From assembly GCA_000004985.1 (NCBI GenBank), contig GG738911.1: a stretch of DNA of 64,000 nucleotides; one strand, written 5' to 3'. The first letter of the stretch is position 1; each line of letters starts with the position of its first letter. The notes under the pieces are model-generated. The model was given only the letters and a program-made list of their open reading frames with translations, made no database searches and had not been told where the DNA came from. Position numbers and translations under genes: made by a program. Below are positions 12,947-63,667 of the stretch, piece after piece. Source of the DNA: Naegleria gruberi. Its lineage: Eukaryota.

Positions 12947-13788
12947 ATGAGCACATCAACTAGGAACGACAGAGGATGTCCAGAACAAATAGGAAAATCC
13001 TCTTCAAGGAGTAACTATACGGCATCTATTGATGAGATGGCAACAGCAAGTAAACCTCATTCCTCTCTACATCGGAGTAGCAGCGTTCCAAAACGATCTT
13101 CTCCTCTTGTGGAGCAGCAACTATCATCATCTTCAAATCAAAGATCATCTTCTGGAAATCATCATCGGAAATCATCATCAGCAACACCAGTAACACCATC
13201 ACCATCGGAAGATCACCAATTAACCTACGAGGAAGCAGTTAAAAAATTAGATGAATTATCGCCCAAATCTAAAGGAATACTCAAATCAATAATGAAAATG
13301 ATGAGTCCTTCAAATAATAATGCAATAGAAAATGGAAATAATAATATTAATGCAAATCAAAATAATAATAACAAAAATAATATTGTAACTTCAACAACTA
13401 GGGAACAAAATAGAGAAAAACAACAACCAAATAGAGAACCACCATCATCTAGGACAATTAATAATTTAAATGAAATTGAAAAAATGGCAACAGTGAATTT
13501 TGCTAATGAACCACAATCATCATCTTCTAGAGGAGTAATTACAGGAGAAGAAAAACCAAGTTTGAGGAGGACTGTTTCATCAATACCCGAAGTAACAAAA
13601 CCAAAGAGGACTTCAAGTAATCGGGTAGTGACGCTTAATGTTGGAGGTCAAATATTTCAAACTACAAGCAAGACACTACGAGGGTGCGAATCACTTTTTT
13701 CATTAGTATTTTCGGAGAAGGATACAGTGCTGAGAGATGACAATGGTCATGTATTTATAGATAGAGATCCAAAATATTTTAGATACAT
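12947..13788 (+). CDS. KCTD-like BTB/POZ (K+-channel tetramerisation, T1-type) domain protein, exon 1
   Basis: Low-complexity N-terminus, then 'VVTLNVGGQIFQTTSKTLRGCESLFSLVF...DNGHVFIDRDPKYFRY', the canonical T1/BTB_2 motif. Exon ends AT|GTAGGT, phase 2. Confidence 0.8.
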
Positions 13789-13866
13789 GTAGGTTTTGAA
13801 TTAAGGAAAATCAATAATAATTAATATTTATTTTACCTTCAAATAATGAATAATAATTTAACACAG

Positions 13867-14521
13867 ATTAAATTACATACGAGATGGAAAGTTAATTGGA
13901 AAATGGAATGAAATTACTTCCGATACGCTGGAAAAAATTACTCATGAAGCTAAATACTTTAAATTACCTGGAATAATTAATGATATTGAAGAGTGTCGAG
14001 TATTGAATGCAAGTTTTGATCCAAGAACATTGGAAGAGGAATGTCAACTTCGATTCTACAATCAAGAGGTTGTTAAAAAATCAGAGTCAGGTTCTCTATT
14101 TGCCTGCCTCGATTATCACATTAATAAGCAGCTAGTCGAGTGTTGCAAAGATCCATTCAGATATTTTGTGAAATTCCTGCTGAGATATGGAGAATCCAGT
14201 AATTTAGCAATTGGAGTTACTTGCAAACAGACCAATCGTTGGAACCGTTTTGAAGTAATGAAAAAGATTAAGGAAAAGGATACAATTGCAATTTGGTACA
14301 ATTACCAAACAGAACATCTGGTTCTTTACTGGAACGACGTGGAAGTTCAACGAAAGACCTTCAAAATCAACTCACACGACTGGGTCTTTCATGTGGAAAT
14401 GTTTGCCGATGATAATTTCTGTGGTTTGAGATTGGTTCAACATCAAGGAATTCATCCCTCACAAATAGTACATCAACATGAGGAATCTGAAGAAGAAGAT
14501 GCTGAAGAGCATTCTCAATAA
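13867..14521 (+). CDS. KCTD-like BTB protein, exon 2 (after 78-nt intron 13789..13866)
   Basis: The intron runs GTAGGT...ACAG. Splicing restores 'FIDRDPKYFRYILNYIRDGKLIGKW', which is a textbook T1-domain continuation. Acidic C-terminus. Confidence 0.8.
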
Positions 14522-22309: not shown

Positions 22310-24927
22310 TCGGTTCATATGCCAGCTCTTCTCTTCTCACTGTTTTCAGTTATGACACCTCTCTTTCCGCTGCCAATTCTACTTCCTCAAGTGATGTTGC
22401 ATTGGAAATTGTGAAGAGTGTAGTAATTGATCCAAAGAATCCTACCACAGCTCTCACAGCCATTCAACAAGCTACCTCAAATCCAGAGGCTGTCGATTCT
22501 CGTGTCATTACTGAATTAACTAACAAGATTAATAATTTTGTAGCAACTCTCAATACTAATTACAAAGAAGAGAGAGCTCTTTATGGATTTGTCAAATCTA
22601 AATTGGCAACTGCTGACACAACAAGAACAACAGAAATTATTTCAAATGTTTTGGCAAGTGGAAGAGGAAATCAACAATCTAAGGGAATGGCAGATAATTT
22701 GACCAATTTATTAATTTTGGGAGAAATTGCCACATTATTAACTGGTCAGGATCAATCATCAGATGTTAACGAGTTGACCAAAGTTTCCTTCACATCTTCT
22801 CAATTGGATATTGCTGTTGCCGTCTTTACTTTGGATAAAGAAATGAATGGAACCAATCAAATGATTGGAGGTGATAATTCTGTAACCATGCCATTGTCAC
22901 AAATCACGAAACAATACAATGGATTCTCTAAAGAATCTGCCACTACCATGATCACCTATGATCAAAATATTTACTCTCAATCCAATGTTAGCGTCCTAAC
23001 TTCAACAGTGACTGATTTTAAATATTATCAAAATCAACAAGTTGTAACATTGGAGAATTTATCACAAAATATTGAACTCAAATTCAAAATTACAAATTCT
23101 ACAATTGTAATGGAAAAGATTATGGAATATATCAATAGTACAACTCAATTCAATTCAACCTCAAACAGCACCCAATCCAATTCTACTCTAGTGATGGCTT
23201 GCAAATATTGGGATGAATCTGCACTTGCTTGGAGCAGTAGAGGATGCTATCTGAAAGGATACAATTTGACAAGTCAAGAAATTCTCTGTTCTTGTTCTCA
23301 CACGACAATGTTCACAACCTTTGTGGAACAAAACACTTCGACAATTCCTGCTTCAGTGAAGGAAACAGTTGCTGCCTTTTATTATGGTCAAATTGCGTTG
23401 GGAATTTTCTATTTCTTGACTTCCATTGTCATTCTTTGTTTGTTGATTATTTTCAAGAATGAACAACCAATTTCATCTCGTTTGATTACTCCATACTTGG
23501 GAATGATTGCATTGATTGTGGAATCTCTTCTCGTTTACATTACACAAAGAGGTATTTTAGTGAGACAGTTGACTTCTACTTCAACTCAAATGTGGGAATC
23601 TGGAGATACTGATGCCAACACAATTGCAAACATTGTTCTCATATTTGCGAATACCATTAATTTGACAGCCATTTTATCTTATGTCATGCAAGTGTTGAGA
23701 TTCCAAGTTATGAAATACTTGTACGATTTATTGGCCTCCAGTAGAAATAATGAAAAGAAGAGCGATAGAATTTTGACAGTTTTGAGATTCTTGACATCTT
23801 CCTCATTGTTTTCCGCTATTTTAATTGTATTTGCAGTTATTAATGTATGCTATTGGGTCTTGTGGGTTGTTTTGAGAAGAACTGGAGTCCTTCCACCAGC
23901 AACATACACCTACATTGTTTCCATTTCGTATACGGTTATCATTTTCACATTTGGTGTCATTATTACATTGGTAGCAATCTTTGACTGGGTTGGATCTTCA
24001 GCCAAAGCAGGAATCAAAGCCAAGAGAAACTCCTCACTCACCAGAGAATCCAAATTCAAAATTGAAGAAGAAATTCAGAAGGAAATGGAAAAGTTTGATA
24101 TTTTCGAAAAGATTTACACAATTCTAGTAGGAATTGATGAACCATTGTATTTCAGAACTGAAATGATTATTTATGTGATTAGTTTCGTATTTTTAATCTT
24201 AAATCAAGTTATTGGATTGGTAGGAAATGAACTTAGATATGGAAATGAAGCCTCGTACAAGAAGGCGCTAATATTCGACTCCATTTCATTTATTTTCGAA
24301 GTTCTCTACGTGTTTACCTATTTATTTGTCTTTGGAGGATACTCTCTCATTCTATTACTCATTAGCAAGGTGAAAACATACAGAAATAACAAGGAAATGA
24401 AAAAATCTGCCAAGAAAAACATCAGCCAAGGTAGAGAAATCAACGAGGACATGTCACTTGTCTTTTCCAGCGATGAAGCCACTGAATTATTCGCCAGTTT
24501 CTGCGTTAAGGAATTCTCCTCTGAAAACTTTTATCTCTACTCAGATTTGAAAGAAAATACAGACATTATCGAAGGTAATAACATGCGAAAATTGCATCCA
24601 TATCTTCACTACATTCACGACACGTATGTGAAAGATGGCGCCAACTATCAAGTGAATATTCCAAACAAGTGCAGAACTAGTTTTATGAATCTGTTCAACA
24701 AGTATGCGAATGAGGTTTTGGAAATGTTGGATTCACAACTCAGTGAAAAGATCTCAACGGAAATAAGGAGTAGTTTTGAAATTCTAGTTCAGCAAATATT
24801 TGTCAATTTGGGAGATACCTTTTCAAGATTTGTATTTACTGTGGAATTTAAGGTTTTTAAGAAAGCATATGAACTTAGACAGGATATTTTGGAGGAATCT
24901 AATGTTGTTTTAATTGATGATGAGTAA
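22297..24927 (+). CDS. adhesion-GPCR-like protein, GAIN/GPS + 7TM + C-terminal RGS-domain segment, frame-shifted -1 from the previous ORF
   Basis: GPS motif 'CKYWDESALAWSSRGCYLKGYNLTSQEILCSCSHTTMFTTF'. Seven hydrophobic helices. RGS domain 'ELFASFCVKEFSSENFYLYSDLKE...QVNIPNKCRTSFMNLF...DTFSRFVFTVEFKVF'. This frame is open from 22240, so the break lies within 22240-22307. Confidence 0.75.
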   Translation: MVSLIGSYASSSLLTVFSYDTSLSAANSTSSSDVALEIVKSVVIDPKNPTTALTAIQQATSNPEAVDSRVITELTNKINNFVATLNTNYKEERALYGFVKSKLATADTTRTTEIISNVLASGRGNQQSKGMADNLTNLLILGEIATLLTGQDQSSDVNELTKVSFTSSQLDIAVAVFTLDKEMNGTNQMIGGDNSVTMPLSQITKQYNGFSKESATTMITYDQNIYSQSNVSVLTSTVTDFKYYQNQQVVTLENLSQNIELKFKITNSTIVMEKIMEYINSTTQFNSTSNSTQSNSTLVMACKYWDESALAWSSRGCYLKGYNLTSQEILCSCSHTTMFTTFVEQNTSTIPASVKETVAAFYYGQIALGIFYFLTSIVILCLLIIFKNEQPISSRLITPYLGMIALIVESLLVYITQRGILVRQLTSTSTQMWESGDTDANTIANIVLIFANTINLTAILSYVMQVLRFQVMKYLYDLLASSRNNEKKSDRILTVLRFLTSSSLFSAILIVFAVINVCYWVLWVVLRRTGVLPPATYTYIVSISYTVIIFTFGVIITLVAIFDWVGSSAKAGIKAKRNSSLTRESKFKIEEEIQKEMEKFDIFEKIYTILVGIDEPLYFRTEMIIYVISFVFLILNQVIGLVGNELRYGNEASYKKALIFDSISFIFEVLYVFTYLFVFGGYSLILLLISKVKTYRNNKEMKKSAKKNISQGREINEDMSLVFSSDEATELFASFCVKEFSSENFYLYSDLKENTDIIEGNNMRKLHPYLHYIHDTYVKDGANYQVNIPNKCRTSFMNLFNKYANEVLEMLDSQLSEKISTEIRSSFEILVQQIFVNLGDTFSRFVFTVEFKVFKKAYELRQDILEESNVVLIDDE

Positions 24928-48178: not shown

Positions 48179-49867
48179 ATGGAATCACCACTGAAGAAAA
48201 CCAAATTCAATCACCAGAAGTCTTGTGTTGTTCATCATGGGGAGGAGGAAGAGGCTGATCATCATACAATCATTTTATCGGATCATCTTTCGAATAATTT
48301 TTTAAAGCAACAATTAAGAGGAAAGACAATACGAAACTTTCAATTCCATATTTACTCTGAAAATAATGATTTGATGAATCCACAGTTTGATGAATTTGGG
48401 AGGGAAAATATATTTAGTGCTACGAGATGTGCGGAATTGGATTTATCATTTGTTGCTTTTCGAAATTTTAAAACTAATTCGATTGCAATATTCGAAAGGA
48501 ATCAATTATTGAAGATAATTAAAATGAATGATGATTTTGAATCATTTCAAGTGGATAGTACGGGAGAATTTGCTTTCTTATTGAATTCAAAAAGTGAATT
48601 GATTAAGGTGAAACTAGACGAATCTGCAAAATCTATTTGGAAAGTAAATGGTGTTTTACAATTTTGTTTGTGTAATTCAAAGAGTGAAATATACACAGTA
48701 AGCAAGTACGATAACAAAAATGTGACAGTAAGAATTTGGGAAGATTCTAATGGAATACTGAAGCGTGAATTAGTAATTAAAGATTGCAAAAAGTTGTCTG
48801 ATTTTGATTTGATAAATATGAAACGAGATGATAAGAAACGTTTACTATTTCTATTCAGAAATGATCTGAGAACAAGGTTAAACAGTAAGATCGTTTTGTA
48901 TGATGAGATAAGAAATCAGTCAATTAAGATGAAAATGACTGAAATATCTATGGTAGATTTCACAAAAGAAGGCTACTTGCTTTTTTATTCAGGCGTAGAT
49001 CTAGCATATATTTATGATGATAAGAGTGGACTTGTACTTTTGGAAATGTTATTGCCCTGTAGTTTCAATTCAGTTTCCTATTTTGAAACAATTTCGAATA
49101 CTCTCTGCCGCTTTGGTATTTGTCCAGTAGAAAAGGATAGGATTGAAATTTTATCAAATGTTGTTAACATGCCACTTAAAGAAGAAACATGCCAATCTTT
49201 ACAGAGGCTAGGATGCCAACTACCAATAAGCATTCAAGTCGATTTTGAATGGCTTGGCTTTTTCATTCCTGATTATTTACAAATGTTACTAACAACCAAC
49301 TATGGAAATATGCAATTTTGGTATCAAGATGATGAGCTAGCTGCACGATTCAAATTTATCACTACTCCACATTCTCTCAATTTTGAAGATCATGTCGTTA
49401 TAAGTGATTCAGATGATAACTTGACTGTGTCTGTAAAGAAATCAGACCTTTCAATTCATAATAATTTCAGTGGTGATTTTCCCATTTACTTGTCTTTTAT
49501 TGATTCTAAAAAGGGAATTTCGATCAAGAGTTTTACATTATCAGAATTTATTCCAAAATTGCTAATTGTAGAATGTGGTAAAAAAGTATTATCATTTACT
49601 ATTTGCTTTGCAAAGATATTTGAAGAATTATTAGAGATTGGAATAATCGATTCGAAAAGAAACATTAATCCTACCACTCTATTAGAAAGATATCAAGAAA
49701 TAATTTGTAGTTCCATGCAGGAAAATATGAATATTAATTTATTGGGAGAATACTTTGGACATTCAACTATTCGTCTTGACGAAAGAATATACAAAAAGAT
49801 GGATCTGATTGTATTGGCCAAATATTGTCCAAAGTATTTAAAATTATTTGGACAAATCATTTTTTGA
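48179..49867 (+). CDS. clustered lineage-specific family, copy 3
   Basis: 'MESPLKKTKFNH...' plus the shared central and C-terminal motifs in diverged form: 'MPLKEETCQSLQRLGCQLP', 'FIPDYLQMLLTTNYGNMQFWYQDDEL', 'DFPIYLSF'. Confidence 0.65.
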   Translation: MESPLKKTKFNHQKSCVVHHGEEEEADHHTIILSDHLSNNFLKQQLRGKTIRNFQFHIYSENNDLMNPQFDEFGRENIFSATRCAELDLSFVAFRNFKTNSIAIFERNQLLKIIKMNDDFESFQVDSTGEFAFLLNSKSELIKVKLDESAKSIWKVNGVLQFCLCNSKSEIYTVSKYDNKNVTVRIWEDSNGILKRELVIKDCKKLSDFDLINMKRDDKKRLLFLFRNDLRTRLNSKIVLYDEIRNQSIKMKMTEISMVDFTKEGYLLFYSGVDLAYIYDDKSGLVLLEMLLPCSFNSVSYFETISNTLCRFGICPVEKDRIEILSNVVNMPLKEETCQSLQRLGCQLPISIQVDFEWLGFFIPDYLQMLLTTNYGNMQFWYQDDELAARFKFITTPHSLNFEDHVVISDSDDNLTVSVKKSDLSIHNNFSGDFPIYLSFIDSKKGISIKSFTLSEFIPKLLIVECGKKVLSFTICFAKIFEELLEIGIIDSKRNINPTTLLERYQEIICSSMQENMNINLLGEYFGHSTIRLDERIYKKMDLIVLAKYCPKYLKLFGQIIF

Positions 49868-49910: not shown

Positions 49911-51740
49911 ATGCCATCACAATACAATCAAAATCCCTTTGCTAATTATCCTAATGCTATCTTGGGGACTAGGGAAAATAATTCTCACGACGAAGAGCGC
50001 GTTAAATTAATACTTCTTGAAGGTCTTGATACAAATACTAAATTAATAAGGGAAAATAATTCATTAAGCAGAAAACTTTCTGAAGGACTGGAAGCGAAAC
50101 TTACAGGAAAGAAGGTAAGAAAGGTTAAAGGAATGTTTATCAACTCGGAAAGGTTGGTTGAATATGTAAACAAACAGGTATTGTGTATGGATACATGTCA
50201 TGCTTTGAATTTATTATTTGTTGGGTTGTATAGTTTGGGATTTTATATGATTTCCATATTCGAAAATGGTGTATTGAAGAGAACGATGGAAATTTCTGAT
50301 CGTTTTGTTTCGTTCCAAGTAGATGAACAAGCAGAGTTTATTTATCTATTAAGCAATGGTAATTGTGGAAGGTTAACGAAAATGAAACTTGACGATACTT
50401 CAATAGTTTGGCATTTTAATAGCATTAACAGTTTTTGCTTGGCTGGTAATGAGATTTATGTTGGATTCTCATGCAAAACATACTTGACAGTCCATATATT
50501 AGATACTATCGATGGTTCACAAAAAAAGCAATTCACAGTTGATAAGGGAATGAATACATTCATCTTGAAACAAATGAAATATTATGAAAGAAAGCTCTAT
50601 CTTCTATTTCACAAATGTGGAACAAGGAATATTGTTCATCACTCAAATCTTTTTATGATTGTTGATTTAATAACCGAAAAGACACAACCGATTAAGCTAG
50701 AGAAGACACTTTCGACTATTGGAATTACTACAGGAGGTCTTTTGATTTTTTTTGGTTTATGGGATGTAGACGTGTATGATATTAATAGCAGGTTGCTTCT
50801 TGGTATTAATTATTCTCAATTTCAGTCGAAATGTTTTTTGTCTGCTTGTGCCAATCACTTTGATAAACATTCGAATAGATACTACATTCATCAATTTGAA
50901 GAGCAAAAGAATCAAAAAGATGAAATTATTCAAATTAGTTCAAGCATAGTATCTGAACAATTGGAAATAAGTATGAATGTTGTAGATGCGCCACTGAATT
51001 CTAAAATATGGCAAGCAATTGAAAAATTGGGAGGTCAATTACCACAATATATTCCACAAGATAAGATTAGTTACAGAAATTTAAACTTTGAAGATTCACA
51101 ATATTCCATCTATCCAGACTGTTTAGAATATTTATTAAGGGTTGATTTTGGACAAGTTGGCTTTTGGTATAAAGATAAAGAAATTACCAAGAATTTCACA
51201 TTTGAAAAGGAAGCTTATGTAGATTGGGTACGAAAGAAAAGAGATAATGAACTTTTTTTTGCTACACCATTCTTTCACAATCAAGGAATGTTTCTTTATG
51301 TAAAGAAAGAAGAGCTTTCTAATAATGATGATTTTCCAGTACATCTCCTCTATCAGACTAACGATGAAAATAACCAACATGAAGAAAAGGTAATGAGTTT
51401 GCTTGAATTCCTTTCAAGATTGAGTCTTGCTGAACATGTCATTTTAAATACTGGTTTCGAATATTTCATCAACTTTGAAATGATTTGTAAGGAATTATTG
51501 GAAAAGAACATAATTGATCCAGAAACAAGACAATTAGATATCGAATATTTAATCAAAAATTTTGAGGGAGCTAATATGTATTTGAAAATTTATTTCAACA
51601 ATTCAAAATTCCGTTTTGGAAATTCCATTTATGAAAAGCTTTTTTTGATTCTAACAGCAAACGATTGTTCAAAAAATTGCCTTATTGAAATGGAATCAGA
51701 AGTTGATTCAGATGATGATGATGAATATTGTATTTTGTAA
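49911..51740 (+). CDS. clustered lineage-specific family, copy 4 (tandem, 43 bp after copy 3)
   Basis: '...VDAPLNSKIWQAIEKLGGQLPQYIPQD...IYPDCLEYLLRVDFGQVGFWYKDKEI...DFPVHLLY...FEYFINFEMI'. Acidic C-terminal tail. Confidence 0.65.
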   Translation: MPSQYNQNPFANYPNAILGTRENNSHDEERVKLILLEGLDTNTKLIRENNSLSRKLSEGLEAKLTGKKVRKVKGMFINSERLVEYVNKQVLCMDTCHALNLLFVGLYSLGFYMISIFENGVLKRTMEISDRFVSFQVDEQAEFIYLLSNGNCGRLTKMKLDDTSIVWHFNSINSFCLAGNEIYVGFSCKTYLTVHILDTIDGSQKKQFTVDKGMNTFILKQMKYYERKLYLLFHKCGTRNIVHHSNLFMIVDLITEKTQPIKLEKTLSTIGITTGGLLIFFGLWDVDVYDINSRLLLGINYSQFQSKCFLSACANHFDKHSNRYYIHQFEEQKNQKDEIIQISSSIVSEQLEISMNVVDAPLNSKIWQAIEKLGGQLPQYIPQDKISYRNLNFEDSQYSIYPDCLEYLLRVDFGQVGFWYKDKEITKNFTFEKEAYVDWVRKKRDNELFFATPFFHNQGMFLYVKKEELSNNDDFPVHLLYQTNDENNQHEEKVMSLLEFLSRLSLAEHVILNTGFEYFINFEMICKELLEKNIIDPETRQLDIEYLIKNFEGANMYLKIYFNNSKFRFGNSIYEKLFLILTANDCSKNCLIEMESEVDSDDDDEYCIL

Positions 51741-52561
51741 ACATTGTTCAATCATTAATAGAACTTTAAAGTTAAATATTAAAATCTTCCATTTTGAGGA
51801 AATTTTAAAAATTGCAATTTTAAAAAAAATGTGTGATGACGATAAATTATTTATATGACAATTTTGCTTTTAGATGATAAATTTATTTCCAATATATGTA
51901 ACCTCAAAGGAAATTATTCGTAAAATTACTACATAATCTATATTTTAATTTTTTAATATTAAAGGAGGCTGAATACGGGTGATGATGCAAAGCCTTTGGT
52001 TCGGAATACAACAAAGGATGACGAAATCATGTTAATCACAATAATATAATTGCTATTATGGAAGCTCGACCGAATTATTCAACCTTTAAACTGTAGATGT
52101 TTTGTAAATATTATCTATTTGTACAAAGGGTTGTACGGACATGGATTTCCACACCTCCGTAATTGCAATCCAAAAGTTCTTGATGACATGAACTACTGCT
52201 GCTGCTAACACACTATGTTGTGATGACTTTTGATGAGATACTGTGTATGAATCTGCTCCTTCTAAATTGGTTTTTTGATGGTCAACCAATTACTCAATCT
52301 ACATACTCTTTTGGCAATTGAATTATCGACAAACACAATGCTACAAAATCATGATACAATAAGAGAATCTCCATTGTTCATGACTCTTAGCACTTAATAT
52401 TGTGTTTGGAAGGATGAGTTAATCAAGACACAGTTGACTAGGGGCGAAAAATACTTAATATTGGACTGGACATGCCATTTCAAACGATTCTTTTGACACT
52501 TTTCAAAATGGTAAAAGCGTTGCTTTTGAACATGAATTGTGGACTCCATCACTTTAAAAAA

Positions 52562-53078
52562 ATGAAATCAGTTCTATCGTTTGAGCTTGGACTCTTACTG
52601 CTGATATTGGCATGTTTGATGAACTCTCAGTTTGTCAACACTCAAGCTATCAAATCTCGCATTGTTTCAACATTGATGAATAAGAAGGATGTGAATCGTC
52701 CACAAGATTTAATTGAAATGGGGCAAGTGTATGCAACTACATTTCGTAAAGGAAGTAATGGAGAAGAAGATTCTTTGTTGTTTATTGATTCAGGAAATTT
52801 GAAAATGTATGGATTGGTCAGCAAGAATTTCACAACTCTCTATTCATCTATTTATTACGTATCTTTTCAAATGCCTTTGAATCCATTGAACAACGACGAA
52901 TTGGTATTCCATCATAACGCTCAATTGTTAAAGTTGAATATCAAAACTTTGACAACTGAAAGATTGGCAGGTACAGGTGTATTTGGTTACAATGGAGACA
53001 ATATCAACGCTACATCCGCCCTCATTCAACCAGTTCAAGCCATTAATTACAATTCAAATAATGAGTTGGTCTTTGCAG
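52562..53078 (+). CDS. secreted NHL-repeat + EGF-like protein (paralogue of the GPCR ectodomain), exon 1
   Basis: Signal peptide 'MKSVLSFELGLLLLILACLMNSQFVNTQA'. NHL-type 'LAGTGVFGYNGDNINATSALIQPVQAINYNSNNELVFA'. Donor G|GTAAGT, phase 1. Upstream in-frame ATG/TTG also exist in tool ORF 52472..53095. Confidence 0.7.
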
Positions 53079-53123
53079 GTAAGTTTTCATGTTAGAAATT
53101 GTTTTTGATTCACACAACAACAG

Positions 53124-53855
53124 ACAGTTATAGAATCAGAAAAATTCTATTGAATGGTACCATTGTAACCATTGCTGGTCTTTCAACAGCATGTGATGGA
53201 GTGACTAGTGTTTTAAGCAATATTCCAGCAACATCAGCTTCTATTTGTTCTGTAACATCAATCCTTTTTGTGAAATTTGCAGGTTATCCAGAAGAGTGGC
53301 TCTATTTCAGAGATCAAGTTGGTGTGAAACGTATTGATCCAACCACTGGAGTATTATCCATTGTTTTTGTGTACTCTTCCTACTATGCCTTTTATTTGAA
53401 TCCTGTTCAATCTGACAGATCTAGGTTGATTCCAGATGATTTATGGCTTGGATATGGCTCGTATGCTGTTGAAATATTGAAAAATAATGGCCTTGGTCAG
53501 GTTATTATTGGTGGGGGTCAAAATCAGACCTTTTTAGTGGCAGACGCAAAGTCTGTTTCCTTGTCCACAATAACAAGTTTTGCCTACGATCAAGAAAAGA
53601 ACGAATTGTACATTGGTACTTATGGATCGGTTGTTAAATATGTTAGATCAGATAGAACTATTAGACATATTGTTGGTTGTGCATCAAGTAATTGCTTGTT
53701 GAGAGGAGTCAATATTGATGCTCAATATGCTAGTATGTCTTCCGCTAAACCAAGTGTATTTTTTGATAATGGTCAATTGTACTTAGCAGATAGCATAATC
53801 ATTAAGGGTATTGATTTGAAGAGTAGATTAATCAAGAATTATATTTCCCATGAAT
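53124..53855 (+). CDS. NHL+EGF protein, exon 2 (intron 53079..53123, 45 nt)
   Basis: Acceptor caacag|AC restores 'VFADSYRIRKILLNGTIVTIAG', the same 'D..N.RIRKI' NHL motif as in 19973..22309. Donor T|GTAAGT. Confidence 0.75.
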
Positions 53856-53899
53856 GTAAGTAGATGAGAAATCTTCATGTTCTAACAATATTATTTCAG

Positions 53900-56670
53900 C
53901 TATGGATTCTATCAATTACATGACCTACAAGAATGGTTTAATCTATTTACATGAGGGTTCTTACTCATCCACCTTGTTGAAATTTAATCAAACTTCTTCA
54001 GTTGTGGCTAAAATTGCTGGATATTATTATTACTCAGAAGGTGGTTTAGCAATGAGTAATTCTGTCGATTCACTTTCCTCCTTTTCCTTCAACTCAAAGA
54101 ATGAGATTATCATGTCAATTGGCGATCAAATTAAGACTATCAGAAATGATAGAATATACACAATTGTACCAAGCTCTTCATATTATGCATCTGCAGACAA
54201 TGCATCATTCGCAGAGGCAAGACTTTATGGACCTTCTCAATTAATTTCTCATCCAACAAGGGATAATGAAATGTATTTCATGGAAACAAGCAGAAATATC
54301 ATTAGAAAGATGGATTTTACAACTAGTAGAGTATTGACTGTTGCTGGTAAAAGTAATGGATTTGCAGGAGATGGATATTTGGCCACCGAGAGTGCCATTA
54401 AAGTTAACTGTTTTACTATGGATGAATACGGAAATATTTACTTTACTGATGGTGCCAAATTGAGAAAGATTGACCAATCAGATTCTAGAATTTCCACATT
54501 AACTTCGTCTACTTCGGGCTACAGTTCAGATGGTACTGATCTATCGTCTCTTTCGCTCTCAGCATCTAGCTGTGTCCTCTCTGTCAAGAATAATGTCATT
54601 TATTTTGTTGAGGATAAATCTGTTAGAAAGATTCATCCAACATGTGAAAGTGGTTACATTCTTAATACCAACAGCAATGGATGTGTTGCTTGTCCTTCAG
54701 GATTGACCAACGATGAATATTTTTATGAATGTGTTCCTCAATGCTTTGGAAAGATCAATCCAAATGCTTGCTCCAAGAACGGTAAATGTACATCTAACAA
54801 TGTCTGTACATGTAATCTAGGATGGACAGGAGCTGAATGTTCTCAGACTACCTGCTTTGGAATTACCAACTCTGATTCTAATGTTTGCTCAGGAAGAGGT
54901 TCATGTCAAGGATTAGACACATGTAAATGTTTGGATGGTTTCAGAGGAAGAAATTGTGAATTTACAGCTTGGAAAGATGGTGATGTGACTGTTCAAACAG
55001 ATCAGGATGAATATGTGTATCGTAGTACAGAGCCAATGGTCTATGTCAAATTCAATACTACTTATTCGAGATCAGTTACATTGAAAATGGAACAGAGATC
55101 ATCTTATTATAACATAATTAGAAGTACGATTTATAAGAATTTGACAGCTGCCGAGTTGACCACTGTTTATTCTCAAAAATTCATTAATTTCAACCTCCAA
55201 TATGGTCACATATTTGACGTTACAGTATTTGACGCTGAGACTGGTGTGCAATTATCAAACCCAGCTTCCAAAGATGTCAGTGTTATTACTTGTGCCACTT
55301 GTCAAGTTGCCAATCTAATTCCTCAATATTTACAAATGGCCTACAACAATACTAGACCAAATCCTGGAGATACAGTCAGTGTTAAGATTAGCATGTTGCA
55401 ATATTTCTATTATGTGTATACATTTGATATCACCGTTACGTTTAACAATGTCACCTATTACAAGCAAGCTATTTCAACAGTGGGTCAAGAAGTTACAATT
55501 TATATCCCTCCAGTTTTCGAAAATGGTACCTTTAGAACCTATGTTTCAGTATATGGCCAACCATATTACAAAAATTCAACCTATTTGATGCTTAGTGCTT
55601 CTACTAGTGAACTGGCAGTTTACAATCAAACTCTATTTGTTGAGGACAGTTGGATTAGTTCTAGTTTCAGTGTTGATAAGATCCCTTACAAGAGTACCTA
55701 CACTACTAGTACATTGGATATGAAAATTGCTCATATTGACTTCACATCTCTATTTAAATACAAGCAATTGACTGCCAATGTGAGCATATTCTTGATTGAT
55801 GAATTTGGAAATAGAAAAAATCAAATCTATGCTAATTCTCTTCAATTCTTGGGCAGTAATCCAGTTCTGTCAATTCAAGTTCCAAAAACCGCTTTCAGCA
55901 TTCGTTCTGATTGGACTTTGGATGGATTTATTACCATTCTCAATAATGGAACAATAGTTTCGAATGTGAAAAAGACAATCAAACCAATTACTTTTTATTG
56001 TCCGTCCTCTTACTTTGGACCTCAATGTGATTTGACAATTTGCAACGGAGTTTATTCCAATTCTACAAATGTTTGCTCTGGAAATGGTATTTGTTCTTAT
56101 TCCTATTGTTATTGTAATCAAAATTACAAGGGATCAAATTGTGAAATGCCAGCATTGAAATCCTCTTCTGTCATTACAAAACTCGATGCACCTTACAAAG
56201 TCAAAGGTTCACTTACATTATCCAACTTGACAATTGCTATTAATGCAAGTGATTCTGAATTCTTCTCCTATTATAGAAACAAATCGTTGATTTGCTATGT
56301 CTATGCTCAATCAACAACCTCAAATTATATTGGATATATTACATTGGACAAAACTAATGATTTTACTGTTTCCGTTAAACTTCCAGATACATTACTCCTT
56401 GGAACCTATACATTCAGACTCAACATTCAATCAAGTAGTGTAATAATCTTGGACACTGGCTCTTTTTATTATTCAACCATTTCGTATACAGTTGGTTCTC
56501 AACCGTTACCTCCTGCAGTGGTGAGCAACAATAACCAACCAAGCAAACCAAAAGTTTCGACTAATGGACCTAACAGAGAAACTACATTGAGTGAGGGTAC
56601 ACCTAACTCAGTAATGATTGGAATTAACTTGTGGATTTTACTCGTATTGACATTCTTAATAAATTATTAA
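53900..56670 (+). CDS. NHL+EGF protein, exon 3 (intron 53856..53899, 44 nt); EGF-like repeats and C-terminal hydrophobic tail
   Basis: Acceptor tttcag|CT. EGF-like 'CSKNGKCTSNNVCTCNLGWTGAECSQTTC...CSGRGSCQGLDTCKCLDGFRGRNCE', 'CSGNGICSYSYCYCNQNYKGSNCE'. C-terminus 'NSVMIGINLWILLVLTFLINY' is a GPI-signal or TM candidate. Confidence 0.75.
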
Positions 56671-56821
56671 CTGTAATGTTTTCTTTATTTAAACAGATGA
56701 AATGATTCAAAAACAGCTGATCTTGTTGTGGCGAGGTATTTCCTGTTAGGCCTAGTTGAATTGTGTGATGTGCAAATTACTAAATTTCCTAAATATTACC
56801 TCAACAAACACGCTTAAAAAA

Positions 56822-58501
56822 ATGAAACGAAATCCACATCCAAACCGTGACCGTTTTGAGGAAGAACCATTATCAAAGTCAATGTACCAGCCTCCTCAAC
56901 AAGAAACAATTCATTCCGAAAAGAGTGAAACAGAAGAAGAATATACAATTAGAAAATTTAATGAAAATTTTCATAATTTTGAGCTTGAGTCTATTGTTGG
57001 CGCTCAAGTAAAGTTTGTTAAGGCTGGTGCCTCCTCTGCTCTTTATTATTTTGTTAGCAAACCAAATGAATTGTTTCAGGTTAATAATTTCCCAGAATTG
57101 AACGCATTTGCCTCCCAATGTGCCGAACATTACCAAGGAGGTATTATTAAGTGTTTTTATCATGTTTTTATAACTGGATTCGTGAGAACAGGAAAGACAA
57201 CCACGGCTCGATATCTTTTCCCCTATCTCCATTCTATTCATTGCTGTAGGAGATTTAATTACATTGGCTATGAGGTTCAATATCTTGATATACAAGATTT
57301 TCCAAAGCACGAACAAGAAGAAGAATATTATTACGCTAATAGAATTATTAGAAGCTTTGTTGGTGAAGGAGCAACTGTAGTAGACTGTATGCAAGATTCA
57401 ACTCAATACAATCCCATCACTGAGTATTTGGAAAAAAGAAGCGATAAGATGGTATACTTTGTCTTGGACGAAATTCAACTATTATCTCCGACCACTTTGA
57501 ACTATCTCAAGAAGGTATTTAAATCACCTACTCTAAAGAGTTCTTCAAATTTCCTTAGTATTTGGACAGGAAGTACCCAATCACTTCTATTCAGAAAGTT
57601 GAGAGAAGTACTTCCATATGGATTCTCATTTTCGGATAATGAGATGACCTACAACATTCCACACTCGAGTGCAACTGCAAATTTAAGGGAGGTTGCCATA
57701 TTCCAAAACTACATTATGAAAAGAAAATTTGTCGACACACAAGTTCTAAGAACCATCAAGGATTCATTAGAGGTGCACCACTGCAGTTATGTTGACCAAA
57801 TTATTTCTCAACGCAAAACCAAGACTCTCCAACAATCCATTTCTCATCTCATTCAACAAATCTTCTCCATTTATGATAGAGATATTGGCAATATTGTTAA
57901 AGGACTAACGAGAGAGGAAGCTTGGATAATAATCAAAACCAAAGCTGTTCCAGCCTATATAACGAGTATAGCTCTGTGTGGCTCTGGGATTACTGATGGT
58001 TCTATGTTTGTAAAATTCAACCGAGAGACCCAAAAGTATGAGCTTAGAGACTCATTGCTCTGTTCTTATATCATGTTTAGATGGGATAGTCTTTGTAGCT
58101 CAATGAGAGCTGCTGATGTTGAGTATCATTTTCACTTATTGTTACCATTCCAATTTTTGGGTGAGTCCATCAATTTAATTGAATCATCACTCATTGAAAC
58201 TCTTGGAATGGCTGATCATGATCACAAACAGTTTGCTGCGGTACTTAATAATGGATTAATTGACAATTCTATTCAAAACAAAATTGAAATAATAGAGGAT
58301 GAGGAAAAACTTGTCAAAACAATCATCAAGGCAATCAGACATATTTCAAGTCAATCTTCTGATTGTAAAACCCTCTATCAAGAAATTGTAAAATATTGGT
58401 GCAACAATGAACCAAGAAATTTCATCAGAATTGCTGAGAAAATCAGGGAAGTGGTTGTTATTACAAACTGGAACCATGAATCAAAATTTGTAAAATATTA
58501 A
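56822..58501 (+). CDS. P-loop NTPase (Walker A/B), unassigned family
   Basis: 'FITGFVRTGKTTTARYLF' is a Walker A motif. 'VYFVLDEIQLL' is a Walker B-like hhhhDE. ATG at 56822; the tool ORF begins at TTG 56756. Confidence 0.5.
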   Translation: MKRNPHPNRDRFEEEPLSKSMYQPPQQETIHSEKSETEEEYTIRKFNENFHNFELESIVGAQVKFVKAGASSALYYFVSKPNELFQVNNFPELNAFASQCAEHYQGGIIKCFYHVFITGFVRTGKTTTARYLFPYLHSIHCCRRFNYIGYEVQYLDIQDFPKHEQEEEYYYANRIIRSFVGEGATVVDCMQDSTQYNPITEYLEKRSDKMVYFVLDEIQLLSPTTLNYLKKVFKSPTLKSSSNFLSIWTGSTQSLLFRKLREVLPYGFSFSDNEMTYNIPHSSATANLREVAIFQNYIMKRKFVDTQVLRTIKDSLEVHHCSYVDQIISQRKTKTLQQSISHLIQQIFSIYDRDIGNIVKGLTREEAWIIIKTKAVPAYITSIALCGSGITDGSMFVKFNRETQKYELRDSLLCSYIMFRWDSLCSSMRAADVEYHFHLLLPFQFLGESINLIESSLIETLGMADHDHKQFAAVLNNGLIDNSIQNKIEIIEDEEKLVKTIIKAIRHISSQSSDCKTLYQEIVKYWCNNEPRNFIRIAEKIREVVVITNWNHESKFVKY

Positions 58502-58553: not shown

Positions 58554-60179
58554 ATGCCACAACAAGAAATCTTCTCCTCTCTCCCGCTCGCTCTTATTCT
58601 CCGACTTGAACGAGCAGAGCCTAAACTTGCCAAGTTTATTCTCTCATGTGATGACAATTTTTCTAGTCAATTATTGGAACACCGTAGAAAATATAAACCC
58701 TCTCATGTAGTTCTCCTATTAAAATATCATCATCGTCATGAGTATAGTTATGGAGGAGTGGCCATTTTGGAGTTGAATAGAATTGGAGTTGAATTAAAAT
58801 GTAAAAGTAATGAAACAAACAAGATGGATGATCAAGGAAGATTGATTAGAATTAATGATGAAAATGGAAAGCCACTTGGATTGTTTGCTGATGAGGGAAG
58901 TGTGAATGAAACTCATCAAGTGGTGATTAGTGAGTGGAATGATAGGGAAATGATTTTTTCACAATCGATGGATTTGAAGGAAAGAAAATTTTTGAAATTC
59001 AAGTTGAATCAGAAAAAGGTGGAAGAATCGTTTGTGGAAAGGGTTCATGTTGAAGTTTCTCATCAACTTTCGCATAGCCTTTATCGTGCTGATCATCCAT
59101 TGAATGTTCCTGTAATTGGTAAAGCTCAGAATGTTCTTTTAACACATCTGGCATTTGATAGATTTTCTCAAAAGAGTAATTTAGCAATTTTCAACATTGA
59201 AAAGAATGAAAATCATTCATTGAAAATTAGTCAAAAATTCTCCACCGAGGAAGACACCCACGCTTTCTATATTGCCCTCATGGAGAGTAATCTAGGTCAG
59301 AAATATATTCTAAAATATGCCTTTCAAAAACCTTCCTATTCATCCATTGGTTATGTGAGTTTGAATAACACCAAAAAGTTCTCATATACTCCAATACGAG
59401 TGGATGGTTTTGAGGGAATATTTCAGAAGAATACCTGCAAGATGAGCCAAATTTTGTGTCATACTCAATTGAGTGAAGGAAAGTATCTATTCATGACATA
59501 TTCGAAATCATCCAAAAGAATCAGTTCTGATTTCCAACATTATTTCACAAATGAAATTGTTTGGATATTAGTAGATGTCAATGAGAAGAGAACCAAAAGA
59601 GTTTATCCAAGAGTTTATAACATTGCAGCCAATACAACAACAGGTCACGAAAGAACATTTCTAAATCAGTCGAATCAAGACGAAACCAGCTTTCAAACAG
59701 TGCAAAAGAAGAAGAGAGGTGGAAAAATTCAAAAGAAATTCCACACTGATGAAGAACATTTATATTTGGACGGTGATTTGAATGGTGGCTATTCAGATTC
59801 TTCTCTTTTAAAGAAAATTAATGGAATTACAAATTCTTCAATTGACCAAACATCCACATCCGTCATGATTCCAATCTTGAAAGAAGATATCACCAATAAT
59901 GATGTAACCATGAGAGCGTTTAGACCATTTTTCAGTAATCCAGATATTTTCCAAGTATTAGTTTTCTTTTCCAAGGTTGTGGAAGATGGTGTTGATTTCA
60001 ATCCTCATTTTGGTAAAATGTTTAGTTACTTCTTCCAGTTCAAGAATGAAACTAAGGTAAAGGTAAGAAAGGTTGGAAGAAGATTCTCAGATGTTAATAT
60101 TATCACATGCTCAACAAGCAAAGTAGGAACAGCTGGTGGTAGTAATAGACAGTTTAGTAAAGTGTTGGCCTTTCAATGA
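58554..60179 (+). CDS. hypothetical protein (541 aa), no recognised domain
   Basis: ATG-initiated ORF. Codon usage is like its neighbours. No motif was assigned. Confidence 0.5.
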   Translation: MPQQEIFSSLPLALILRLERAEPKLAKFILSCDDNFSSQLLEHRRKYKPSHVVLLLKYHHRHEYSYGGVAILELNRIGVELKCKSNETNKMDDQGRLIRINDENGKPLGLFADEGSVNETHQVVISEWNDREMIFSQSMDLKERKFLKFKLNQKKVEESFVERVHVEVSHQLSHSLYRADHPLNVPVIGKAQNVLLTHLAFDRFSQKSNLAIFNIEKNENHSLKISQKFSTEEDTHAFYIALMESNLGQKYILKYAFQKPSYSSIGYVSLNNTKKFSYTPIRVDGFEGIFQKNTCKMSQILCHTQLSEGKYLFMTYSKSSKRISSDFQHYFTNEIVWILVDVNEKRTKRVYPRVYNIAANTTTGHERTFLNQSNQDETSFQTVQKKKRGGKIQKKFHTDEEHLYLDGDLNGGYSDSSLLKKINGITNSSIDQTSTSVMIPILKEDITNNDVTMRAFRPFFSNPDIFQVLVFFSKVVEDGVDFNPHFGKMFSYFFQFKNETKVKVRKVGRRFSDVNIITCSTSKVGTAGGSNRQFSKVLAFQ

Positions 60180-60251: not shown

Positions 60252-61769
60252 TTAAGAGGACTCTGTAAATTGCCAATGATAATACTTTTGCAAAATATCT
60301 TGAGGTTTTCTAAATTGACATTCATCAACAAGGTGAAGAAAATATTTCACAAATTGAGGAATATTCTTAATAATCATATCATTGTCAAAGTTTACCATCT
60401 GTGCATAATAAACTCCATAAGTTTGTTCCAATAAACTTGCTTGTTCCCAGAAACCTTGATAGAAAAATCCACCACTCGGCAATATTTCCAAAACTGCCAA
60501 TTTTCTTGGTGCGAATCTAGAATTGTAAAAAGCTGCTCCATGTGGTCCAAATATTGCCTTTACATTGGCAAAGAATTTTACAATTTCACTCAAATTGGCG
60601 AAATCTCTGCTATCAAATGTCACCAATTCTTCATTCAAATTTCGTTTCAGCAATTCCACTTTTAAATGTTCCAAAACAGCATCCTCATTAAGTATCATTC
60701 TTCCTCCATTTTGACTGTCGCCATTACTTCTTGTAAAGTAGACAATTTTCTTTCTATCTTTGAATGGAATATCGAATGACAAGTTCAATTGAAAAAGTAT
60801 TTCATTTGAAATTCGTTGAGTGGTGAATGGATGAACGAGTGGACTTCTGCAGGAGTAGATTACTTTCTTGGCATAAATTGCACGTTTATGGAAATGATTG
60901 TGTGCAATAATTTGATAAATTTCATTGACAAATTGGTTGGTAGGCTCTTTTCCAGCAAGTATTGAAGATTTTCTTCCTGCTGTCTCAGAATTTTCCAATG
61001 TTGCTTGTCCCCATACTACAGTAACTCTATCCAGAAAGTGTTGGAAACTGAACGAATCTGGACTTGTTGAAATAATCAAAGAATCGACCGATTCATATGT
61101 TTGCAACGGAGTTGGATTCGTTTTTAGAAATTTTAAATGAGAATTCGATTGACCAACACAATTATTCTCACTCCATTCATCACTGTCAACAATTGGATCA
61201 ATATAAACATTATTAAAAACTAAAATTTGACCATTGATTGATGGGTAAATTGCCCATTCATTATCTGGACTCCATTTCATTAGAATAGAATCTCTAGATT
61301 GTTCCATCCATATTTTCTTTTGCTTTTCATTGAAAAATTTAGGAGCTTTGATTTTGAATGAGTGGTAGATTAGTTCAATTCCTTTTTCTATATTCGAATC
61401 TTGATTTTGTAAACATGGAGCTGAGAATTTGTACATTCCACTTTGACAATCCTCAATTTTAATTGGCATCCACTGCGAAATGGTCAATTCTTGATAATCT
61501 ACATCTTTTTCCAGCTCAAAATTCGTTTCTTCTAGTTTCGTATTCCACAGAAATTCATCACTTTCATAAAATAGGTCAGCATGTTTTGTCGAGTTGGATG
61601 GTGTTGGTGTAATCTTTCGTAATATCCTCAACAAAATCATTGTTGTCAACATGAACATCACAACACATATTAAAACTGCCAATTTAATTCTTCCATAACT
61701 TTTTGATGGACTGCTGACAGGTACATTGTAGATTGGAAGAGAGTAATGGTGAAGAGCTTGCTGTGCCAT
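60252..61769 (-). CDS. type-II membrane glycosyltransferase, GT61/DUF563-like
   Basis: N-terminal signal anchor 'IKLAVLICVVMFMLTTMILLRIL'. C-terminal 'IFGPHGAAFYNSRFAPRKLAVLEILPSGGFF' resembles the GT61 'G.HGAGLTN..F.P....V.EL.P' motif. Confidence 0.55.
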   Translation of the reverse strand: MAQQALHHYSLPIYNVPVSSPSKSYGRIKLAVLICVVMFMLTTMILLRILRKITPTPSNSTKHADLFYESDEFLWNTKLEETNFELEKDVDYQELTISQWMPIKIEDCQSGMYKFSAPCLQNQDSNIEKGIELIYHSFKIKAPKFFNEKQKKIWMEQSRDSILMKWSPDNEWAIYPSINGQILVFNNVYIDPIVDSDEWSENNCVGQSNSHLKFLKTNPTPLQTYESVDSLIISTSPDSFSFQHFLDRVTVVWGQATLENSETAGRKSSILAGKEPTNQFVNEIYQIIAHNHFHKRAIYAKKVIYSCRSPLVHPFTTQRISNEILFQLNLSFDIPFKDRKKIVYFTRSNGDSQNGGRMILNEDAVLEHLKVELLKRNLNEELVTFDSRDFANLSEIVKFFANVKAIFGPHGAAFYNSRFAPRKLAVLEILPSGGFFYQGFWEQASLLEQTYGVYYAQMVNFDNDMIIKNIPQFVKYFLHLVDECQFRKPQDILQKYYHWQFTESS

Positions 61770-62197: not shown

Positions 62198-63667
62198 TTA
62201 CAAATTCGATTGAATAAATTCACCAAATTTTCTAATGAAAATTTCAGGATTTCTTAATAAGCCAATAGCTCTGTTTCTTCCCTTTTCGGTCATAATGTCC
62301 GCAGCTTTTTGTCCTTTAACCTCAATGATTTCCTTCTTTCCAATTAGACCATTAATACTTCCCAAACTCAATTCAAATTTTCCTGATTTTTCCTTATTTT
62401 TTAACATTGAGGCAGTTGAGGAAAATTGTGGAGCTACCTTTTTGATTTGCTGAATGAAATTTGACATTTTGACAATATTTGTACCAACAGTGATACCTTC
62501 TCTGACTGCTGAACCTGCCAATTTTTCGTATGGAAGATCTGTCACATCACCAAGTGAGAAAATATTTGGATGGTTGACAGTTTGATAGAAATCATTAACT
62601 TGAATGAAACCTTGAGAATTTCTTGCAATATGACTTCCTTCCAACCATTCAGTATTTGGAATCATGCCTCCACACCAAAATATCATACTTGCTTTTGGAA
62701 GTTCAATAACTTGTTCACTAGTCAATTCTGCATTTGGAATATTCGGTTTTAAAACAATTTCCTTCTTAATCAATGGATTAGTTTCCTCCCCAGACGAAAC
62801 CAATTGAGAAACATCCTTATAAAAAGCTCTCTTTCCCATAAAAACTTCAACTCCATTCTTCACCAAATGGTTATAGATATAATTGTGTGCAGTTTCAGAA
62901 TTTGATCGATCTCTCAACAACTTTCTACTATGAACGAGAGTTATTTTGAATGGTTCCAATCCGTGCTTTCCTCTCCATTGATTGACATCAATTAATTCAC
63001 CTGCCAATTGAATTCCCAAAGCTCCTCCTCCAACAATGACAACATGATCATTTTCCTTAGAGGTAATCTTGTCATAGAATTGATGAAATTCGTGTAATCT
63101 TGATTGAGGAGTGACAGATTCAATCTTTTCAATGTTTGCCTTAATATAGTCTGTCTTGTATCTGCAGCCATTTGCCAAGATTAGGTAATCGTATTCGATA
63201 GTTTCTTCTCCCTTAATGGAATTTCCATCCAATTGTTGAATTGTAATCTTGGAATGCTCGGTATCGAGTTTGGAAGCTTGGGAATGACTAATCATTTTGA
63301 CAGAATATCCATTTCTCTTGTCAAAAGTCTTTTCAAGTTCATCCAACAAGACATGTGAATTTTCATGATGATATTCTTGTGGATTGACCATATAACGTAA
63401 AGTAAAGATAGATGACTCGGTGAAATTCTTCTTTTCAATCAATGTAATGTTAAATGTTTGACTTTTGGCAACAAAATGTGAGGTCAAAGTTGATAGAACT
63501 GATAATCCAGCAACTCCTCCTCCAACAATAACTACTCTTGGTTGTGTACTCATGATGATGATGTATTCTTGATGTTTGAATATTTGTTTTTGAATTGGAA
63601 ACAATGTTGAGCTATGTGAAAGTGCGTTCTTAAAGAATTTAACATAATGGAGGAGGAATTTGCGCAT
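62198..63667 (-). CDS. FAD/NAD(P)-dependent pyridine-nucleotide-disulfide oxidoreductase, AIF/AMID(FSP1)-like
   Basis: Two Rossmann motifs, 'RVVIVGGGVAGLS' and 'HVVIVGGGALGIQLAGEL'. The 38-aa basic N-terminal extension from ATG 63667 could be a mitochondrial presequence. An alternative ATG is at 63553. Confidence 0.7.
   Translation of the reverse strand: MRKFLLHYVKFFKNALSHSSTLFPIQKQIFKHQEYIIIMSTQPRVVIVGGGVAGLSVLSTLTSHFVAKSQTFNITLIEKKNFTESSIFTLRYMVNPQEYHHENSHVLLDELEKTFDKRNGYSVKMISHSQASKLDTEHSKITIQQLDGNSIKGEETIEYDYLILANGCRYKTDYIKANIEKIESVTPQSRLHEFHQFYDKITSKENDHVVIVGGGALGIQLAGELIDVNQWRGKHGLEPFKITLVHSRKLLRDRSNSETAHNYIYNHLVKNGVEVFMGKRAFYKDVSQLVSSGEETNPLIKKEIVLKPNIPNAELTSEQVIELPKASMIFWCGGMIPNTEWLEGSHIARNSQGFIQVNDFYQTVNHPNIFSLGDVTDLPYEKLAGSAVREGITVGTNIVKMSNFIQQIKKVAPQFSSTASMLKNKEKSGKFELSLGSINGLIGKKEIIEVKGQKAADIMTEKGRNRAIGLLRNPEIFIRKFGEFIQSNL

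Follow-up and report, generated by a model that had tools for sequence, protein, structure and literature searches.

Two breaks in a run of long open reading frames (ORFs) raise a question about positions 52562-56670 of the Naegleria gruberi DNA analyzed here, a 64,000-nucleotide (nt) stretch of contig GG738911.1 that we call the window. Do these ORFs form one functional gene for a cell-surface protein, and if so, how is the product held at the surface, and how closely is it related to the seven-transmembrane (7TM) receptor with an RGS domain that is encoded in the same window? An initial annotation, made from the letters of the DNA, had proposed a secreted protein with NHL repeats and EGF-like modules, two introns of about 45 nt, and a paralogous relationship to the receptor ectodomain. 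With a probability of roughly 0.7, we consider the locus to be a functional, apparently unannotated N. gruberi gene that encodes a 1339-amino-acid (aa) NHL-EGF surface glycoprotein, most likely attached by a glycosylphosphatidylinositol (GPI) anchor.

Gene model and splice junctions

An ORF listing of positions 52000-57200 gave three long plus-strand ORFs, at 52472-53095, starting from 53099, and at 53902-56670. The first two are parted by a single in-frame TAG, and the second and third by a frame shift. Joining 52562-53078, 53124-53855, and 53900-56670 produces a coding sequence of 4020 nt for 1339 aa with zero internal stops. The exons and introns of this model are as follows (slashes in sequences mark splice junctions or cleavage points).

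52562..53078, + strand: exon 1, codons 1-172 plus base 1 of codon 173; codon bias in frame 0.276 bit/codon
53079..53123, + strand: intron 1, 45 nt, phase 1, GTAAGT...AACAG, GTAAGTTTTCATGTTAGAAATTGTTTTTGATTCACACAACAACAG; in-frame TAG at 53093-53095
53124..53855, + strand: exon 2, remainder of codon 173 to base 1 of codon 417; 0.255 bit/codon
53856..53899, + strand: intron 2, 44 nt, phase 1, GTAAGT...TTTCAG, GTAAGTAGATGAGAAATCTTCATGTTCTAACAATATTATTTCAG; CTAAC branch-like element at 53882-53886
53900..56670, + strand: exon 3, remainder of codon 417 to codon 1339, TAA stop at 56668-56670; 0.232 bit/codon

Four observations place the gene model beyond chance. First, the two strands of the window together contain only 10 copies of GTAAGT, compared with about 44 expected from the base composition, and two of these 10 copies sit precisely at the two ORF breaks. 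Second, junction 1 rebuilds ELVFADSYRIRKILLNGTIVTIAG, which aligns to the blade motif of an N. gruberi paralogue, P0004 (ELVFADSY--RIRKI-LLNGTIVTIAG in the target and ELYIAESYGHRIRKV-LTNGTIITIAG in P0004). Third, the in-frame codon bias of the three exons (0.23-0.28 bit/codon) is comparable to that of annotated neighbors (0.22-0.41), and both off-frames are negative. Fourth, the 922-codon open frame of exon 3 has a chance probability of about 1e-31 at the local base composition.

No GT..AG pair with a consensus donor other than intron 2 can connect the frames of ORFs 2 and 3, and retention of intron 2 in the transcript would shift the frame and lead to a stop at 53861-53863. Both introns are more AT-rich than the exons (GC of 0.29 in intron 1 and 0.35 in the exons). 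The junction peptides given in the initial annotation, VFADSYRIRKILLNG at junction 1 and SHES/MDSINY at junction 2, were reproduced, as were the GTAAGT...CAG ends, the Asp codon split as G/AC, and the intact frame of 1339 codons. The three-exon model with introns of 45 and 44 nt was thus confirmed.

Minor ambiguities concern the start and the first junction. The context of the start codon, aaaaaaATG, is the same as that of the annotated downstream neighbor NAEGRDRAFT_74127, and further in-frame ATGs at 52472 and 52508 upstream of 52562 are possible alternative starts. An alternative 45-nt pair for intron 1 (GTTTTC donor at 53083, ACAG acceptor ending at 53127) would give ..VFAGNSYRIRK.., with D replaced by GN, but its donor is much weaker than the GTAAGT donor. 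No tandem DNA repeats were found within the gene.

Domain organization of the predicted protein

The ectodomain of the product consists of an N-terminal NHL region followed by Cys-rich and EGF modules, an orphan region, and a membrane-proximal domain.

52649..54636, + strand: degenerate NHL-repeat region, residues 30-662; contains both introns
54643..54960, + strand: Cys-rich module (4 Cys, residues 665-694) and two six-Cys EGFs (698-730 and 735-769), from Pfam and cysteine positions
54961..55989, + strand: orphan beta-rich region, residues 771-1113, about 340 aa (343 aa)
55990..56148, + strand: half-EGF and third complete EGF, residues 1114-1166; EGF_Teneurin 27.0 (cut-off 24.3)
56149..56505, + strand: family-specific membrane-proximal beta-sandwich (modelled as Ig-like) domain, residues 1167-1285

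Because the Pfam NHL models remain below threshold, the NHL assignment is based on homology searches, a family blade model, and PDB matches. In a phmmer search with the 1339-aa product, N. lovaniensis C9374_014632 (P0001; E = 1.8e-109) and N. fowleri FDP41_011322 (P0002; E = 1.8e-82) ranked first, followed by another N. fowleri protein and an N. gruberi predicted protein, so that the top four matches all come from Naegleria. Bacterial NHL-repeat proteins come next in a long list, with E down to about 1e-44; the alignments to NHL proteins in this search, from 1.8e-109 to 1e-44, cover up to 50% of the query. The bacterial matches include surface proteins from metagenomes with names such as 'sugar lactone lactonase YvrE' and 'trimeric autotransporter adhesin'. 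Their NHL blades are homologous to those of the target, whereas they lack eukaryotic EGF modules, the signal/GPI organization, and introns; the propeller alone is related to the target. A blade hidden Markov model (HMM) made from the Naegleria relatives detects 8 blades in the target, and the NHL region matches a teneurin-like NHL (1e-11) and the SOQ1 NHL domain (4e-08) in the PDB. These comparisons confirmed the NHL content of the predicted protein. Twelve blade-end motifs (hydrophobic-Y/F-x-D/E...R/K-K-I) were counted by eye in residues 72-662, a number that suggests two six-bladed propellers.

The protein contains three complete six-Cys EGF modules, at residues 698-730, 735-769, and 1131-1164. 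Pfam scores are 45.9 for EGF_Teneurin (cut-off 24.3) and 31.4 for EGF_2 (cut-off 22.1), and the segment 54643..54960 can be aligned to the EGFs in both P0004 and the receptor ORF. The segment around the third EGF (1114-1166) attracts nearly all matches in the representative search. The proposed composition of NHL repeats and tenascin-like EGFs therefore holds, the EGFs by Pfam models above cut-off and the NHL part by homology searches.

The orphan region (771-1113) has no Pfam match even at E 5 and essentially no homologue in an exhaustive HMMER search. It shows weak collinear matches to a profile of the membrane-proximal domain, and the best domain score was reached by four of 500 shuffled sequences; these matches are only suggestive of three degenerate copies of the family's putative Ig-like domain. 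Recurring S/D-x-F-x-x-Y-Y-like motifs are seen in residues 776-1113 (54976-55989).

The membrane-proximal domain aligns with P0001, P0002, P0259, P0285, P0307, and P0321, of which P0285 is a 7TM-RGS protein, and its structural model is an Ig-like sandwich. When the 7-sequence alignment of this domain served as a search profile, nothing was found at E <= 0.01 among 5.8e9 sequences, the domain being too short and divergent for a collection of this size.

Relationship to Naegleria NHL-EGF proteins, the 7TM-RGS receptor, and teneurins

On sequence comparison, the target is a divergent member of a large Naegleria NHL-EGF surface-protein family that was already catalogued by Herman et al. 2021. Its members are named 'NHL and EGF domain protein', 'NHL repeat protein', 'teneurin', or 'tenascin' (PMC8296547, Additional file 17). 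The relatives that we compared show 24-31% identity to the target, all at or below about 31% over long alignments, and the closest on a BLASTP scale are P0308 and P0004, with about 26% identity over about 700 aa. P0004 (N. gruberi 'predicted protein', 974 aa), P0001, and P0002 have the same order of parts as the target, namely a signal peptide, NHL blades, EGFs of the CFG...C type, a membrane-proximal domain that appears Ig-like, and a C-terminal anchor. The target differs from these relatives in its far more degenerate blades, in having three complete EGFs compared with up to 26 or more, in the orphan insert of about 340 aa between the EGF groups, and in being missing from the annotated proteome.

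The receptor gene (19973-24927, + strand) comprises ORF1 with NHL and EGF parts and ORF2 with a GPS motif (CSCSHTTMF), seven hydrophobic segments, and an RGS domain. Its ectodomain shows 28% identity to the target over 381 aa (E = 5e-22) and 35% over 135 aa. The claim that the target is a paralogue of this ectodomain holds only loosely, in that both belong to one domain family; the receptor ectodomain ranks only about 16th among the relatives compared with the target on the BLASTP scale, and it is not a close paralogue. Nor can the two genes be called paired, as 28 kb and about 15 other genes separate them. More generally, the NHL and EGF ectodomains of the Naegleria NHL/EGF-GPS-7TM-RGS receptors are homologous to the target, and P0285 shares the membrane-proximal domain. 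In contrast to these receptors, the target lacks the GPS motif, the seven-helix bundle, and the RGS domain and carries a putative GPI-type tail instead. Identity as an adhesion G-protein-coupled receptor (GPCR) was rejected, since the target has no GPS match and its hydrophobic segments are only terminal. The suggestion that one NHL/EGF module serves in both anchored and receptor forms is not new, because both forms in Naegleria are already published (PMC8296547, Additional files 17 and 18); the latter file lists N. gruberi predicted adhesion GPCRs of 'GPCR, RGS, NHL' composition with the ids 80427, 72726, and 63528. A tenascin-like protein was flagged as a 'potential GPCR ligand' in the same study (PMC8296547).

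The two receptor ORFs overlap in different frames at 22240-22307 and can therefore be joined only via a very short GT..AG intron or a frameshift. Candidate introns for this connection are 26-50 nt long, and a GTAAGT donor is present in none of them.

In Pfam, the EGF parts as well as the NHL part of the target score best with the teneurin models, and the PDB chains that match its NHL region at E 1e-11 belong to 'teneurin-like proteins' (9pt5 and 9ifo). Metazoan teneurins are type II membrane proteins; their EGFs precede the NHL propeller, and a YD shell and a toxin-like domain come after it. The target, unlike teneurins, places NHL before EGF and has a predicted signal peptide and C-terminal anchor, and no Pfam match to YD or Tox-GHH was found in it even at E 5. 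A teneurin orthologue was thus rejected on its topology, domain order, YD shell, and toxin-like domain. Tenascins have compact six-Cys EGF repeats of the tenascin/teneurin type in common with the target; a tenascin orthologue was rejected, since the target has NHL blades and no Pfam match to FN3 or the fibrinogen globe.

Proposed C-terminal anchor

Kyte-Doolittle analysis identified hydrophobic segments at residues 1-27 and 1318-1339 only. The former corresponds to a signal sequence, in line with the secreted protein of the initial annotation, and the latter to the hydrophobic tail that had been described as GPI or transmembrane (TM).

52562..52648, + strand: predicted signal peptide, residues 1-29, MKSVLSFELGLLLLILACLMNSQFVNTQA / IK (...FVNTQA/IK); cleavage by the -3/-1 small-residue rule
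56506..56589, + strand: Pro/Ser/Thr/Asn-rich stalk, residues 1286-1313, as read from the sequence
56590..56667, + strand: putative GPI-type C-terminal signal, candidate omega site S1314-E-G, spacer TPNS, tail V1321-I1337, ending in -NY

The C-terminus of the protein, ...VLTFLINY, has a hydrophobic stretch that extends to within two residues of the end, with no charged cytoplasmic residues after it, and the protein carries 19 N-glycosylation sequons. The EGF-containing relatives that were retrieved fall into two anchor classes by their C-termini. In the first class, which includes the target, P0004, P0308, and others, the hydrophobic tail is at the very end, whereas in the second class a TM segment is followed by KKK and a cytoplasmic tail of 20-40 aa. 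On this evidence, the tail of the target appears to be a GPI-attachment signal, with S1314 as the candidate omega site, rather than a TM segment with a tail.

The C-terminal stretch could otherwise be a true TM anchor, with the protein in type I orientation and a cytoplasmic tail of two residues, or the tail could be cleaved and the protein shed or secreted, in both cases without GPI. The polar spacer is short and the omega site was guessed from the sequence, many other members of the family are true TM proteins of type I, and the literature on GPI-anchored proteins of Naegleria yielded a passing mention only. However, the TM-class relatives all have KKK and 20-40 further residues, whereas the target has no basic stop-transfer residues after its hydrophobic segment; in addition, the tail comes after the small residues S-E-G, and the protein has a signal peptide. 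We therefore regard a TM-anchored or shed form as unlikely.

The cytoplasmic tails of the TM-anchored relatives P0001, P0002, P0003, and P0307 often end in D/N-V-E-L/M-x-x-x (for example, DVELANGC, VDVEIEQGF, VELRNV, and VDVELIY), which may be a sorting or endocytosis signal.

Annotation status and integrity of the gene

The gene is apparently missing from the reference N. gruberi annotation. An exact look-up of the 922-aa ORF of exon 3 showed that it is absent, whereas the neighboring genes are present, and no near-identical protein was found among about 15 billion public sequences. A word-indexed search of 5.8e9 clusters returned no match with more than 30% identity over more than one-fifth of the query, and an exhaustive HMMER search of 1.84e9 representatives with residues 771-1339 gave only EGF-driven matches of about 40% identity. 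Ids of the 7412x series, which are those found around the locus, are missing from the repeat-protein table of Herman et al. 2021 (PMC8296547).

Several points weigh against our reading of the locus as a functional gene for a GPI-anchored NHL-EGF protein. Junction 2 falls in a divergent blade with no homology behind it, and its basis is frame restoration and consensus sites; splicing and expression of the locus are themselves predictions from sequence alone (an N. gruberi RNA-seq dataset is PRJEB23822; PMC6142364). The NHL repeats are strongly degenerate, with two RIRK-type motifs compared with 9-11 in the relatives. Pfam TEN_NHL scores 24.4, below its cut-off of 27.1, and PF01436 (NHL) is without a match. 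A single-sequence AlphaFold2 (AF2) model of residues 660-1310 had a predicted local distance difference test (pLDDT) score of 31 and was unusable. Only 4-6 residues separate the candidate omega site from the hydrophobic tail, which makes for a short polar spacer. A surface adhesion or recognition function is suggested by analogy with other NHL/EGF surface proteins. Finally, the N. fowleri and N. lovaniensis proteomes yielded no orthologue, with a best identity of 24-30%; this lack is also compatible with a decaying or very fast-evolving copy.

The locus might accordingly be a decaying or silent NHL-EGF duplicate, a young pseudogene that annotators did not call for this reason. Its absence from the public N. 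gruberi protein set, the degeneration of its NHL motifs below the Pfam threshold, the lack of a close orthologue in other Naegleria proteomes, and a scan of metagenome contigs that found no related locus would all fit such a copy. Against this, removal of the two consensus introns leaves 4020 nt without an internal stop, with the long frame of exon 3 alone being far beyond chance, and the codon bias equals that of annotated neighbors in every exon. All six cysteines are kept in three of three complete EGF domains, and the signal peptide, start context, and C-terminal signal are intact. Decay of the gene thus appears improbable, and the functional gene remains the preferred reading.

It is still less probable that the three ORFs are separate genes or unspliced fragments. 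In favor of this reading, the third ORF opens with an ATG, at 53902 and thus two bases after the beginning of exon 3. However, ORFs 2 and 3 alone would be without a signal peptide, ORF 1 would stop in the middle of an NHL blade, and the gaps are bounded exactly by GTAAGT and YAG, with their removal restoring both the frame and the blade motif.

Source organism and short introns

The source is N. gruberi NEG-M, a heterolobosean (Discoba). An ORF at 62198-63667 on the minus strand is 100% identical to an N. gruberi predicted protein, and four neighboring ORFs match annotated proteins exactly.

9274-12654: exact match to NAEGRDRAFT_53252
56822-58498: exact match to NAEGRDRAFT_74127
60255-61769, - strand: exact match to NAEGRDRAFT_74129
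62198-63553, - strand: P0121, exact match to NAEGRDRAFT_74130

All four are located on one scaffold of 261,328 bp. The window GC of about 0.33-0.35 agrees with the 33% published for N. gruberi NEG-M (PMC8296547).

The AT-rich genome (about 34% GC), domain types like those of social-amoeba adhesion genes, and the significant similarity of the receptor ectodomain lent some plausibility to the idea that the gene comes from an unidentified amoebozoan other than Dictyostelium, with the 7TM-RGS receptor as its direct paralogue and partner. This idea can be dismissed, since the four identical neighbors refute an amoebozoan origin, GTAAGT introns of 52-55 nt occur in Naegleria, and the receptor ectodomain, encoded 28 kb away, is less similar to the target than at least 15 other proteins are. 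Intron length and AT-richness misled the lineage call in this case.

The comparison with D. discoideum, in which introns as short as 44-45 nt had been taken as a hint of lineage, is irrelevant to a Naegleria gene. Published mean intron lengths are 203 bp in N. gruberi and 126-144 bp in N. fowleri (PMC8296547), and Herman et al. 2021 used a minimum intron length of 30 bp, 'based on an assessment of predicted genes' (PMC8296547). Our literature search found no intron length distribution for N. gruberi, only the mean of 203 bp (PMC8296547). Annotated introns of two related loci were rebuilt under the condition that splicing reproduce the annotated protein. In N. fowleri, the homologue P0002 has a single 52-nt GTAAGT intron (10398-10449 of the locus in VFQX01000009.1, phase 1, at TIA/G/TG), the removal of which gives the annotated protein exactly. 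This intron is in a different blade position from both introns of the N. gruberi gene; the intron position is therefore not conserved between the two genes and lends no support to the model. A gene near P0002 has a 55-nt GTAAGT intron, and further introns of that locus are 94 and 278 nt. Introns of 94 and 102 nt were rebuilt in N. lovaniensis, and GTAAGT donors occur among its annotated introns. GTAAGT is thus the donor consensus of the genus, and a short class of about 50 nt is present. The 44- and 45-nt introns would lie at the short end of this class and do not really appear odd for Naegleria.

The window-wide depletion of GTAAGT is about four-fold, which fits selection against cryptic donors in a gene-dense genome. 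A scan of the window for further short introns by ORF geometry was ambiguous, except for a likely 78-nt intron at 13789-13866 (+ strand, GTAGGT...ACAG), which connects a BTB-domain ORF at 12944-13792 to an ORF block at 13862-14519.

Proposed role of the protein

In the mechanism that we propose, the pre-mRNA would consist of three exons, from which the two short canonical GT-AG introns (45 and 44 nt) are removed. After cleavage of the signal peptide, the mature glycoprotein would be held on the outer face of the plasma membrane via a GPI anchor near S1314. Outward from the membrane, it would present the Pro/Ser/Thr-rich stalk, the putative Ig-like domain, an EGF module, the beta-rich spacer of about 340 aa, and then two EGF modules and the Cys-rich module, with about 12 degenerate NHL blades at the tip, probably forming two six-bladed propellers. 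The blades at the tip would be the ligand-binding part. Without a cytoplasmic domain, the protein may act as an adhesion or recognition molecule towards the substrate, prey, or other cells, and signalling, if any, would proceed through a membrane-spanning partner.

One conceivable partner is provided by the NHL/EGF-GPS-7TM-RGS receptors on the same scaffold, for which the GPI-anchored protein could serve as a ligand or a cis co-receptor. The points behind this idea are the common domains, the common membrane-proximal module, and a loose genomic proximity, and we consider it highly speculative. If it were true, the pair would be an independently assembled, non-metazoan counterpart of teneurin-latrophilin adhesion signalling, in which a propeller/EGF surface protein would signal to a 7TM receptor with a GPS motif, and the RGS tail of this receptor would act directly on G-alpha.

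For the current understanding of the family, the gene changes nothing; it is one divergent addition to a catalogued group. The NHL/EGF/Ig-like ectodomain kit appears to occur in GPI-tailed, single-pass, and GPS-7TM-RGS receptor forms, and the NHL-EGF family is a reasonable place to seek ligand-receptor pairs in a deep-branching eukaryote. A reference gene set that is without a 4-kb gene of 1339 codons also implies that catalogues of Naegleria surface and adhesion proteins built on it are incomplete. The adhesion factors of N. fowleri were termed 'mysterious' by Herman et al. 2021 (PMC8296547).

Neighboring loci

Three further plus-strand ORFs in the window, at 48179-49867, 49911-51740, and 58554-60179 (541-609 aa), have no Pfam domain above cut-off, and their exact sequences are absent from the protein collection. 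They are either annotated with other boundaries or further orphan genes. Herman et al. 2021 listed the JGI ids 74131 ('RGS and GPS domains') and 74132 ('tenascin') (PMC8296547). Judging from the id order only, these are probably the next genes of the scaffold beyond the end of the window (>64000), and this placement suggests a loose local cluster of adhesion-type genes.

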